Source of the DNA: an uncultured Dehalococcoidales bacterium
Lineage (GTDB): Bacteria; Chloroflexota; Dehalococcoidia; GIF9; AB-539-J10
Reading direction: 5' to 3'
DNA length: 25,055 bases
Assembly: GCA_964540185.1 (NCBI GenBank)
Contig: CAZILT010000068.1
Coordinates: forward strand, 1-25,055
The position numbers and the translations under genes were made by a program. A model generated the notes under the pieces. The model saw only the letters and a list, made by a program, of their open reading frames with translations, searched no databases and was not told where the DNA came from. Shown here piece after piece: positions 18,774 to 22,052 of this stretch; position 1 is the stretch's first letter; the number at the start of each line of letters is the position of its first letter.

Positions 18774-19607
18774 CTATGCCAGCAGGACATTATCTATCAG
18801 CCTCGTTCTACCTATCCTGACTGCCAGCAAGGCCAGGGCTGGTCGGTCAATTACCTCCAGTTCCTCCAGGGTATCGGCATCAGCAATGCTGACATAATCA
18901 ATTCTGGCCAGAGGCTTCTTGCGTATAACTGATTTCATTTCGCGCCGAAGCTTATCGCCGTTTTTTTCACCATCCTGCCATAATTGCCTGGCTAAGAAGA
19001 GAGCCCTGAACAGAACGGTCGCTGCCTGGCGTTCCTCAGAATTGAGGTAACCATTGCGGCTGCTCATAGCCAGGCCATCGCCTTCCCTCACCGTGGGCAC
19101 AACCATAATCTCCATGTTCATATTAAGGTCAGCCACCATCCTCTTGATGACCACCACCTGCTGGGCATCCTTCTGTCCGAAGTAAGCCCGGGTGGGCTGG
19201 ACGATGTTTAATAGTTTGGCTACCACTGTAGCCACTCCTCGGAAATGTCCCGGACGAGATGCTCCCTCAAGACGCTCCGTTAATTTCTTCACATCCACCC
19301 AGGTGCTGAACTCCTGGGGATACATCTCTGCGTCAGAAGGCACAAAAGCAATGTCCGTTCCCTCCTGCTCCAGTAGCCTCAGGTCGCGGTCAATGTCCCG
19401 TGGGTAGGTGGCCAGATCCTCATTAGGACTAAACTGGGTGGGATTAACAAAAATGCTAACCACAACGGTGTCATTTCCCACCCTAGCTTGCTTCATCAGA
19501 GCTAGATGACCTTCATGAAGATAGCCCATAGTGGGCACAAAGCCGCCCGAGCCGCTGAGCTTTTGTCTCAATTCCCTTATCTCGGCGATTGTTTTTATTA
19601 CTTGCAT
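18774..19607 (-). CDS. panC: Pantoate--beta-alanine ligase
   Basis: FVPTMGYLHEGH, SIFVNPTQF, RPGHFRGV, YFGQKDAQQ, GLAMSSRN, RLIDN. Confidence 0.97.
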   Translation of the reverse strand: MQVIKTIAEIRELRQKLSGSGGFVPTMGYLHEGHLALMKQARVGNDTVVVSIFVNPTQFSPNEDLATYPRDIDRDLRLLEQEGTDIAFVPSDAEMYPQEFSTWVDVKKLTERLEGASRPGHFRGVATVVAKLLNIVQPTRAYFGQKDAQQVVVIKRMVADLNMNMEIMVVPTVREGDGLAMSSRNGYLNSEERQAATVLFRALFLARQLWQDGEKNGDKLRREMKSVIRKKPLARIDYVSIADADTLEELEVIDRPALALLAVRIGRTRLIDNVLLA

Positions 19608-20455
19608 TGAGATTGCTTCGCTCCGCTTGCAGTAACATCGCTGAGGAGGCTTTCATCCATAGTATAGCTCTGCTTTGCGGTAGGGAAACTAGCAGATTTA
19701 ACTTCAGTTACATAATCAGAGACAGCGGCCTCTATTTCTTCAGCCAACTTAGCATATTGCTTGGCATGCTTGGGCACAAAAGTGGAGTAAAGGCCCAGAA
19801 TATCGCTGATCACCTGAACCTGACCATCACAATCAGGTCCAGCTCCAATGCCAATCGTGGGGATATTCGCCTTCTGTGTAATCAGCTTAGCAAGAGGCGA
19901 TGGAACACACTCCAGAACAACGGCAAATGCGCCCGCTTCCTCCAAGATACAAGCATCTTTAAGCAGCCTTTCAGCTACCTCTAGCGTTTTCCCCTGCACC
20001 TTAAAGCCGCCCAACTGATGGATGGATTGCGGAGTAAGCCCGATATGCCCCATAACCGGGATGCCACAATCAACAATACGCTTTACCACTTCAGACACAG
20101 CTTCACCCCCCTCCAGTTTGACTGCCTGCGCCCCACCTTCCTGGATGAAACGCCCCACATTATGCAAAGCCTCAGGTAGGCTGACATGGTAGGTCATGAA
20201 AGGCATATCGCCTATTATCAAGGCCTTCTTAGCCCCCCTGACCACAGCCTTTGTGTGGTGCAGCATCTCCTCCATAGTCACAGGAATGGTGGAGTCATAA
20301 CCCAACATCACCATCCCCAGACTATCCCCAACCAATATCAAGGGCACACCAGCTTCATCAACCATCTTAGCAGTTATATAATCATAAGCGGTAAGCATAG
20401 GTATCTTCTCCCGCTTACGCTTCATCTCCTGTATTTCAGTAATAGTAACTCGCAT
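19598..20455 (-). CDS. panB: 3-methyl-2-oxobutanoate hydroxymethyltransferase
   Basis: MLTAYD, LVGDSLGM, DMPF, VKLEGG, GHIGLTPQ, IGIGAG.CDGQV. Confidence 0.97.
   Translation of the reverse strand: MRVTITEIQEMKRKREKIPMLTAYDYITAKMVDEAGVPLILVGDSLGMVMLGYDSTIPVTMEEMLHHTKAVVRGAKKALIIGDMPFMTYHVSLPEALHNVGRFIQEGGAQAVKLEGGEAVSEVVKRIVDCGIPVMGHIGLTPQSIHQLGGFKVQGKTLEVAERLLKDACILEEAGAFAVVLECVPSPLAKLITQKANIPTIGIGAGPDCDGQVQVISDILGLYSTFVPKHAKQYAKLAEEIEAAVSDYVTEVKSASFPTAKQSYTMDESLLSDVTASGAKQSQCK
19609..19636 (-). repeat. Half-copy of the AGCGAAGCAATCTC palindromic repeat forming the PanB C-terminus
   Basis: GTTACTGCAAGCGGAGCGAAGCAATCTC on the minus strand, translated as VTASGAKQS. Confidence 0.6.
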
Positions 20456-20471
20456 TTTATCTCCCCCTCCC

Positions 20472-20568
20472 TAAAAAATTAAAAGTCAAACATAAAAAAT
20501 CAAAGTGACTACTTAAAATGTAAAATTTTTTAGATTTTGCTCTGTATTTTTGCATTTTAATCTTTTAT
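20472..20568. repeat. AT-rich imperfect palindrome between panD and panB
   Basis: On the minus strand, an A-tract arm (AAAATGCAAAAAT...AAAATCTAAAA) is followed by a T-tract arm (TTTTACATTTT...ATTTTTTATGTTTGACTTTT). Far more AT-rich than the rest of the window. Confidence 0.4.
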
Positions 20569-20952
20569 TTACATTTCTCGTCTAGGAAGAGCGACTGTAG
20601 GTGAGGGCTCGATAATTCTATTTTTATCATCCACATAAACCACAGCCGGCTCCATAGCTATAGCCTCATCATCGGCAACCTGGTAGTAGGAGAGAATGAT
20701 AACTATATCCCCTTTAGCCACTAGCCTGGCAGCAGCACCGTTAAGCCCGATTATCCCTGAATTTGCCCCGCCTTCAATAACATAAGTGCTGAACCGGGCT
20801 CCGTTATTGATATTAAGCACCTCTACCCGCTCAAACGGCAGAAGGTCGCTGGCCTCCATAAGCACTCTGTCAATGGTAATGCTGCCCTCATAATCTAAAT
20901 TGACCTCTGTGGCCCGAGCTCGGTGGATTTTACTTTTCAGCATAGTCCTCAT
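20569..20952 (-). CDS. panD: Aspartate 1-decarboxylase proenzyme
   Basis: [17 protein letters not shown] self-cleavage site, [18 protein letters not shown] 20952 follows SD AAAGGAGG. Confidence 0.97.
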
Positions 20953-21850
20953 TTCTTGCCTCCTTTGTATACTGTCTCGCCTCAAGATGGCAATGACTAT
21001 TTAAAATAGCTCCCAATTCCATGGCCCTACCTTCATCAATCCCGCCCCTGGCTAAAGCAATGGGAATGGTTTCAAATCCTAAGTCTTTGTAGATAGTTAG
21101 CAATGAGGAATTCCAAGCTTCAAGAGCATTTACATGCTTGCTTATGGTGCTTAAGTCACCACGGGCAATGGGGCCGGTGAGGCAGTGGGGCAAGCCAACA
21201 TTATCAATATTATTCACCGTTCCCTTGAGCAAAGGAAGCAAGGATTCTGTTGCCTCCTTCGGTGACACGCCAAAGCTGCGCCATAAATCCAGGGCTAACT
21301 TAATCAGGGTTACTACATAATTAGAGACAAAGACAGCCGCTATATGATATAGCACTTTGTCTCCCGGCTTAAGCTCCACCCAATTGCCATACAAACTGGA
21401 ACACAGTTCCTTCAGCCTTGATAGCAGAGGTTCTTCGGCTTCTAGGGCAAACGTGGAACCGGGTAGGTTATGGATTGCTTCATCAATGCTGGCAAAAGTT
21501 TGCAGCGGGTGGAAGGAAGCTACATTGGCGCCAAGTCGTTCAGCCGACTCCAGAATATCAACGGAATGAGCTCCGCTGCAATGTATGACATTCTGCCCTT
21601 TATGCCATTTAACCTCACTCGCTACATGAGAAATAAAATCATCAGGGGTGGTGATAAACACTAGTTCAGCGACATCAGCTACTTCCTGGGCTGTTTGGCA
21701 AGGGCGACAATTAGCCACCAACCCTGCCAGCTTCCGTGCCGAGGTCAGACTTCGACTGGATACAGCCACTACTGGACTCCCCCGCTGAGAAAGGCTTACT
21801 GCCAAGGCTGTGCCCACCGTTCCAGCACCGACAAAGCCAACTGTTAACAT
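20930..21850 (-). CDS. panG: Rossmann-like + DUF2520 oxidoreductase; probable PanG-type ketopantoate reductase
   Basis: [41 protein letters not shown]. First gene of the pan operon, which lacks panE. Confidence 0.8.
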
Positions 21851-21885
21851 CTCCTTATATCCCTCAGCAGCATAATAAACTCAAC

Positions 21886-21916
21886 AAAAAACCCTCTCAA
21901 CAATACCGAGAGGGTT
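21886..21916 (-). terminator. Intrinsic terminator (attenuator) upstream of panG
   Basis: AACCCTCTC-ggtattgtt-GAGAGGGTT 9-bp stem, with a U6 tract (21891-21886) overlapping the base of the stem. Confidence 0.85.
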
Positions 21917-22017
21917 AATAACCTGACCTTTGTCACCGTCTCGGTCGTTGCCGATCCAAGCGGAAGTTCCTTATATATCCTAGTCTCAAGCTCACTGCCC
22001 CTAAAGGTCAGTGGCCA
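21886..22017 (-). ncRNA. Cis-regulatory leader RNA of the pan operon; probable pan RNA motif with attenuator
   Basis: Lies between the promoter and panG. Contains a CACTG/CAGTG hairpin, two GAGAC motifs, alternative complementary segments and a terminal terminator. The pan motif is known upstream of pan genes in Chloroflexi; no covariance-model search was run. Confidence 0.62.
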
Positions 22018-22023
22018 ATTTTA

Positions 22024-22052
22024 ATACTAGCAGATTTTCTCTATCCAGTCAA
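22024..22052 (-). promoter_or_regulatory. Sigma70 promoter of the pan operon
   Basis: TTGACT (22052-22047), 17-nt spacer, extended -10 TGcTAGTAT (hexamer 22029-22024). Confidence 0.65.

Follow-up and report, generated by a model that had tools for sequence, protein, structure and literature searches.

What regulatory element precedes the pantothenate operon of this uncultured Dehalococcoidales bacterium, and how would it act on the operon? An earlier note on the 25,055-nucleotide stretch of DNA analysed here (referred to as the window) had proposed that the leader is a candidate for the orphan pan RNA motif and carries a terminator/antiterminator switch. The pan motif consists of tandem hairpins, with stems interrupted by two conserved bulged As, in the 5' UTRs of panB, panC and panD operons, and the tandem hairpin pair is its usual form outside the delta-proteobacteria (Weinberg et al. 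2010, PMC2864571). The available text of that paper covers the hairpins only and gives no terminator/antiterminator wiring (PMC2864571). The motif has been an orphan since 2010, and CoA is among the few universal cofactors without a known riboswitch.

Layout of the leader and its operon

The regulated operon, DUF2520-panD-panB-panC, spans 18774..21850 on the minus strand, the same strand as the motif, and dnaJ lies upstream of the leader in the divergent orientation. The features of the locus, in window coordinates, are the following.

22024..22052, minus strand: sigma-70-like promoter (9 of 12 matches, TG present)
21989..22016, minus strand: pan hairpin 1 (P1), GGC-CACUG-A-CC [UUUAGG] GG-CAGUG-A-GCU, from the Rfam alignment
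21964..21988, minus strand: A-rich spacer of 25 nt between P1 and P2, variable in length and sequence
21936..21963, minus strand: pan hairpin 2 (P2), CCG-CUUGG-A-UCG [GCAA] CGA-CCGAG-A-CGG, from the Rfam alignment
21921..21935, minus strand: tail or linker 3' of P2, UGACAAAGGUCAGGU, containing AAAGGUCAG, the 3' half of a 9/9 pair with 22011-22003
21905..21945, minus strand: putative antiterminator, ACCGAGAcGG (21945-21936) with CCcUCUCGGU (21914-21905), duplex of -13.2 kcal/mol
21883..21916, minus strand: intrinsic terminator, 12-bp stem AACCCUCUCGGU/GUUGAGAGGGUU with loop AUU, then UUUUGUU; isolated fold of -14.6 kcal/mol
21848..21865, minus strand: ribosome-binding region, GAGGG (21865-21861) and AAGGAG (21856-21851), and the ATG of the first gene (21850-21848)
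21850-20930, minus strand: DUF2520/Rossmann-like oxidoreductase (Pfam E 7.8e-34)
20985-20569, minus strand: aspartate 1-decarboxylase, panD (Pfam E 9.7e-48)
20455-19598, minus strand: ketopantoate hydroxymethyltransferase, panB (Pfam E 9.7e-119)
19607-18774, minus strand: pantoate-beta-alanine ligase, panC (Pfam E 7.1e-110)

Every sequence string quoted in the earlier note was located on the minus strand of the window at its given position, and the promoter placed upstream was found as well. It consists of a -35 element TTGACT (22052-22047), a 17-nt spacer and an extended -10 element TGnTAGTAT (22032-22024), and transcription is predicted to begin at about 22017-22016, where the motif has its first base; TTGAC(A/G) occurs at an equal distance in most related leaders. 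The terminator, previously put at about 21916-21886, is present with its 12-bp stem and U tract (AACCCTCTCGGT-ATT-GTTGAGAGGGTT at 21916-21890 in the DNA, followed by Ts), and it is the one terminator-like site between 21600 and 22400. The 202-nt leader as a whole folds at -63.1 kcal/mol, compared to -49.0 +/- 4.4 kcal/mol for dinucleotide shuffles (z = -3.2). The start ATGTTAACA of the window is shared by L021 and L022.

A second promoter-like sequence (TTGAGA, 17 nt, TATTAT; 10 of 12 matches) lies at window 21900-21872 on the minus strand, overlapping the terminator 3' arm and the U tract. It could provide unregulated transcription of the operon, or it may be a chance match, as four such sites occur in 800 bp when 1.1 would be expected.

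In many relatives, the first gene of the pan-controlled operon, before DUF2520, encodes an S58 (DmpA/BapA-like) aminopeptidase (L003:492-1493:-; N-terminus MYNAITDVPGIKVGHYTD), which is perhaps a source of beta-alanine. This gene was sought in the genome of the window (90% complete) with a MYNAITDVPGIKVGHYTD-type query from relatives and was not found. At another locus, L008, the DUF2520 gene opens with an apparent remnant of the S58 N-terminus (MRSSITDARKLKVGFIGAG), as though the S58 and DUF2520 genes had become joined there through a deletion. NCBIfam gave no name for either the DUF2520 protein or the S58 peptidase.

The leader belongs to the pan family

The Infernal search with the Rfam pan model, which the earlier note had recommended, was positive. 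Window positions 22016-21932 (minus strand) match RF01749 with 46.1 bits, against a gathering score of 36.2 bits, over model positions 1-92 of 92 (E of about 3e-5 in the window and 3e-7 per genome). No other Rfam family gave an above-threshold match in the whole window, and the 1-Mb assembly contains a single pan match, at the leader. A second P2-like hairpin in the genome (C15 match, CCGCTTGGGC) turned out to be an unrelated hairpin; a loose pattern finds the pan locus only.

The leader carries tandem hairpins with two bulged As per stem (22008 and 21992 in P1, 21955 and 21939 in P2), and it occupies the 5' UTR of a pan operon. In isolation, P1 folds at -12.6 kcal/mol and P2 at -13.5 kcal/mol. 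The hairpin CACTG/CAGTG, as it had been described before (22013-22009 paired with 21997-21993), is a true pairing but merely the middle of the longer, bulged P1 (22016-21989). Compensatory changes are also present in the stems, since 10 of 21 pairs change on both sides, mainly in P1.

The same motif was found in 32 of 41 close relatives, in 119 of the 151 genomes of the order and in 40 of 151 genomes of the class. When 51 distinct leaders were aligned to the Rfam structure, 94.1% of the cells were paired, versus 24-46% with the partner slid. Within these 51 leaders, 8 of the 10 P1 pairs change on both sides, and P2 is paired in 99.5% of cells with a nearly invariant sequence. The leader is a member of the known pan family, displaying all of its defining features that can be examined in silico, and it adds no new class of element. 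The motif itself does not differ from RF01749; what differs is the operon, which here begins with a DUF2520 oxidoreductase. The value of the leader is that of a further well-resolved example of an orphan regulator, ordinary as a kind.

The ten bases 3' of hairpin 2 (window 21935-21926, minus strand) follow the consensus NNAAUARGG among 123 related leaders, where position 4 is A in 99 leaders and position 6 is A in 107; the window has C at position 4. In the Rfam model, these bases are represented by a conserved, unpaired tail. A strand that could pair with the consensus was not found, and the tail may belong to the effector site.

Complementarity between hairpin 2 and the terminator

The earlier note had read ACCGAGA (21945-21939) and TCTCGGT (21911-21905) as the two strands of an antiterminator. 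Their complementarity is confirmed, and the antiterminator is longer than had been claimed (21945-21936 with 21914-21905), comprising 7 bp, a C.C mismatch and then 2 bp; it is mutually exclusive with P2 and with the terminator. Its duplex energy is -13.2 kcal/mol, and the mean of 68 terminator-like hairpins from this genome is -3.4 kcal/mol (sd 2.4), the only comparable hairpin among the 68 being the pan terminator itself. Pairing of the linker between P2 and the terminator with the terminator 5' arm showed no excess over shuffles (mean z = -0.24; 6% of leaders with p <= 0.05).

This arrangement is common among relatives. An intrinsic terminator lies 4-31 nt after P2 in 125 of 129 parsed Dehalococcoidia leaders, and the four exceptions come from one genus. 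An antiterminator of -8 kcal/mol or lower is predicted in 98 of the 125 leaders, versus 3 of 67 background hairpins, and a complementary run of at least 6 nt occurs in 88 of 125, versus a single one of the 68 background hairpins, again the pan terminator. On a MAFFT alignment of 46 leaders, 87% of the antiterminator cells are paired, as compared to 38-59% with the partner slid.

One could argue that the pan hairpins are real, acting through RNA stability, processing or translation, and that the terminator is a fixed, leaky barrier. The complementarity would then be a by-product, with the terminator being an old duplicate of P2, and the terminator arms do resemble the P2 arms (CCCUCUCGG versus CCGCUUGG; CCGAGAGGG versus CCGAGACGG). 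Both antiterminator strands are almost invariant within Dehalococcoidia and covariation is thin. In the MAFFT alignment, in which L024 is misplaced by one column, not a single pair has changed in both partners and column shuffles are not exceeded, which counts in favour of a by-product. Also in line with this explanation, the antiterminator is weakened by an internal C.A/A.C mismatch or a bulge in approximately a fifth (about 22%) of the leaders (a subset of genus g21, L011, L017, L031-L033 and the coaX leaders).

However, three observations speak against it. First, the terminator 5' arm is unusually conserved (CYYUCUCGG) across the whole order and complementary to the P2 3' arm, whereas ordinary terminator stems drift freely. 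Second, L024, the one clearly compensatory lineage, carries a double change, with CCAGGA in P2 and UCCUGG in the terminator arm. Its cognate duplex is predicted at -12.2 kcal/mol, versus -4.9 and -6.4 kcal/mol with swapped partners, and its terminator 5' arm makes Watson-Crick pairs with the changed P2 3' arm but includes a wobble when paired with its own 3' arm. L015 resembles L024 in this compensation, and the remaining variants are compatible via G.U pairs.

Third, in Bacillaceae (120 loci, L053-L172, from a public-genome scan for Bacillus-type P2), the 3' strand (GACAGAGGG plus a variable tail) and the terminator 5' arm (CCUUCUG...) both differ from those of Dehalococcoidia, and the two are still complementary, with a mean of -10.7 kcal/mol versus -7.0 kcal/mol for shuffles. 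They also covary: terminator arms match the tail class of their leader (AGGGAU, AGGGUC, AGGAAU, AGGGUU and others), and 0 of 300 label permutations reached the score, although this covariation should be taken as support rather than proof because relatedness inflates the permutation test. With these observations, we consider a fixed barrier with incidental complementarity unlikely.

The comparison of leaders thus supports the reading of the locus as a putative terminator/antiterminator switch. The transcription attenuation proposed in the earlier note is supported by the terminator present in 125 leaders and its complementarity to P2 in most of them, by the L024 compensation and by the Bacillaceae covariation. 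Covariation among homologous leaders, which the same note had taken as one criterion, was seen in the L024 lineage and in Bacillaceae, but not in the MAFFT count, which has no double-sided changes.

Several variants of this arrangement were noticed. In a sub-lineage of genus g21 (L185-L190, L196, L203, L243 and L248), the terminator arm is changed to CCUUCCCGG/CCUGGAAGG, which introduces a central C.A mismatch into the antiterminator, and hairpin 2 has not changed to match; either the switch is weaker there or some other alternative pairing is used. In Bacillaceae panB leaders, it is the base of hairpin 2 together with the conserved single-stranded tail (GACAGAGGGAU) that is complementary to the terminator 5' arm, so that the register lies further 3' than in Dehalococcoidia. 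A subset of the Bacillaceae leaders (e.g., L059, L068 and L074) has no terminator within 75 nt and instead a longer, different downstream structure. In the available part of the 2010 supplement, a Geobacter construct has UCUUGGU downstream of ACCGGGA, as seen by eye (PMC2864571).

Direction of switching

The leader is probably a pan-family, cis-acting transcriptional OFF attenuator of the DUF2520-panD-panB-panC operon. What we observe is its family membership, its structural elements, the conserved complementarity and a limited covariation; from these we infer the direction of switching and the dependence on an effector. In the mechanism that we propose, transcription would start at the first base of the motif, and the bulged-A hairpins P1 and P2 would form. 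The P2 3' arm, ACCGAGAcGG, could then either complete P2 by pairing with its 5' arm or engage CCcUCUCGGU, the terminator 5' arm. An effector that holds P2 (and P1) folded would leave the terminator 5' arm free, and the terminator would form, stopping RNA polymerase before the first gene. When the effector is absent, the perfect 7-bp (+2) antiterminator would compete with the bulged, wobble-containing P2, and read-through would result.

When transcripts are truncated before the terminator 3' arm, about half of the leaders are predicted to occur mainly in the P2 state and most of the others mainly in the antiterminator state. In the leader of the window, the P2 state is predicted to be favoured over the antiterminator state by 3.1 kcal/mol. 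Near-equal energies of the two states, as the folding model predicts them, are what a switch would require.

The opposite direction was also considered, in which termination is the default and an effector made under CoA/pantothenate shortage opens P2 or stabilises the antiterminator, making the leader an ON switch. By nearest-neighbour energies, P2 plus terminator is 3-4 kcal/mol more stable here, which, taken literally, makes termination the default; the dominance of P2 in about half of the truncated-transcript ensembles points the same way. However, the conserved, sequence-specific part of the leader is the folded hairpins with their bulged As, i.e., what an effector would recognise, and biosynthetic operons are usually repressed by their own end product.

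A further argument against an ON switch comes from genus g34, in which the folded P2 would hide a start codon. Its members (L038 (1556-1600:+), L039, L043 and L049, with genomes of 3.6-4.3 Mb) have pan leaders without a terminator. In this genus AGGAG lies directly 5' of P2, a UUG inside the P2 5' arm is the only canonical in-frame start of DUF2520, and the first eight DUF2520 codons are encoded by the conserved RNA. Judging from this layout, hairpin 2 would serve as a translational operator, with the folded P2 hiding the start codon. The terminator platform and the buried start codon, two independent architectures, therefore both suggest that folded P2 means OFF. All considered, an ON switch appears quite improbable, and we retain the OFF attenuator as the preferred reading.

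Other pairings in the window

The OFF attenuator described above is wired differently from the scheme of the earlier note, in which the antiterminator strand is held by a TCGG/CCGA hairpin (21954-21941) and hairpin 1 has a competitor, the 9/9 helix CUGACCUUU:AAAGGUCAG, which would add another layer to the switch. Both pairings are present in the window sequence, CTGACCTTT at 22011-22003 being complementary to AAAGGTCAG at 21931-21923, and the 9/9 duplex, at -11.4 to -13.8 kcal/mol, is matched by only 2% of linker shuffles. Hairpin 2 would indeed sequester the antiterminator strand, the P2 3' arm being the putative switching strand, but the TCGG/CCGA register is wrong: it conflicts with the family P2 of the Rfam alignment (the 99.5% of paired cells in the 51 leaders), and it fails in relatives with the loop CAGCGAUG. 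Even the closest relatives lack the 9/9 pair (mean of -6.4 kcal/mol for cognate and -6.75 kcal/mol for non-cognate pairs, mean z = 0.13, in 45 leaders), and any role as competitor would be idiosyncratic to the genome of the window. In addition, forcing the 9/9 pair costs 5.5 kcal/mol, and its coexistence with the antiterminator needs a pseudoknot. In its exact form, this wiring is very improbable, and the 9/9 helix is rejected as a component of the mechanism of the family.

GAGAC occurs twice, at 21987-21983 and 21942-21938, as had been noted before. The copy in the inter-hairpin spacer is part of UUGAGAC (window 21990-21983, minus strand), a near-copy of the switching strand that pairs with the terminator 5' arm in predicted folds, with hairpin 2 staying closed. 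Conservation of this spacer copy, the second GAGAC, was sought in relatives, and none was found.

The frequent U.G pairs in the stems (in P1, 21 CG and 20 UG at column pair 6/28; in P2, 47 UG at pair 76/93) show that the element works as RNA on the minus strand rather than as a DNA palindrome. Two tandem imperfect palindromes just 3' of a promoter might instead suggest operators in the DNA, bound by a dimeric transcription factor. This is scarcely credible, because the stems keep G.U/U.G pairs that are mismatches on the other strand or in DNA, the bulged As break DNA symmetry, and the repeats are located 3' of the predicted start, in association with a terminator.

Effector

The effector of the OFF attenuator might be a small molecule late in the pantothenate/CoA pathway, to which we give somewhat less than an even chance; a dimeric RNA-binding protein is a serious though slightly weaker candidate, and something else altogether is unlikely. 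The discoverers of the motif, in view of its simple, tandem structure, thought of a dimeric protein (PMC2864571). Among the genes of the operons examined (S58 peptidase, DUF2520, panD, panB, panC, coaX and coaBC), no candidate for a cognate RNA-binding protein was found.

The earlier note had offered probing with CoA, pantothenate and beta-alanine as though it were new. According to the available part of the 2010 supplement, in-line probing of a single-hairpin Geobacter pan RNA with pantothenate, CoA and beta-alanine at 1 mM had already been done (PMC2864571). In the literature found, as far as its accessible text goes, there is no report that any of the three binds to the Geobacter pan RNA. 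The earlier statement that pan has no validated ligand agrees with a 2022 review, according to which no CoA riboswitch is known, and with the literature that was found. A search for pan, CoA or pantothenate riboswitches returned nothing beyond the 2010 paper and two 2022 reviews, and in a 2024 paper on CoA biosynthesis in B. subtilis the words riboswitch, RNA switch, RNA motif, terminator and untranslated are absent.

In one genus (L045:652-1592:- and L048; 4 of 5 genomes), the pan motif precedes the type III pantothenate kinase gene coaX and then coaBC, not pan genes. In these leaders, the terminator begins 4-8 nt after hairpin 2 and has little of the usual antiterminator complementarity. As pantothenate kinase and coaBC are here placed under the motif, a signal downstream of pantothenate would fit better than pantothenate itself.

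A more specific idea, which is possible but which we hold only tentatively, is that pan is the missing RNA sensor of the CoA pathway. The two bulged-A hairpins would cooperate, in the manner of guanidine-II, in binding a late-pathway compound such as 4'-phosphopantetheine, dephospho-CoA or an acyl-CoA; binding would lock hairpin 2 and lead to termination or to blocked initiation, and none of the three compounds of 2010 would be the ligand.

These comparisons have the following consequences: the wiring drawn from about 125 relatives, with the hairpin 2 3' arm as the switching strand, tells which state an effector should stabilise and which mutations to make; the same logic recurs on different platforms, i.e., a terminator in Dehalococcoidia and, with different sequences, in Bacillaceae, and a buried start codon in one genus; and the suggested candidates are a protein or compounds late in the CoA pathway rather than pantothenate itself.

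Comparison with known regulators

By analogy, the pan leader would work like a PyrR-type attenuator or like an OFF riboswitch. In PyrR attenuation of the Bacillus pyr operon, a conserved hairpin holds the antiterminator strand, and when the effector-loaded protein is bound, no antiterminator forms and the downstream terminator stops transcription. The pan leader would share the hairpin-held antiterminator strand with this system. However, the pan hairpins are unrelated to it in sequence and form a tandem pair, and we know of no binding protein, known or predicted, for pan.

In the SAM-I and TPP OFF riboswitches of Firmicutes, which control the biosynthesis of the cofactor that they sense, a ligand-stabilised aptamer helix and a terminator compete for a switching strand, and the pan leader would have this competition in common with them. 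In contrast to SAM-I and TPP, pan has neither a multi-helix junction nor an obvious pocket, and it has no validated ligand. With regard to overall form, there is a likeness to the guanidine-II (mini-ykkC) riboswitch, in which very small tandem hairpins, which could pass for a protein site, cooperate in binding a small ligand. The tandem small-hairpin form is like that of pan, but guanidine-II binds its ligand via conserved ACGR loops and acts on translation, whereas pan has variable loops, conserved bulged As and a terminator platform.
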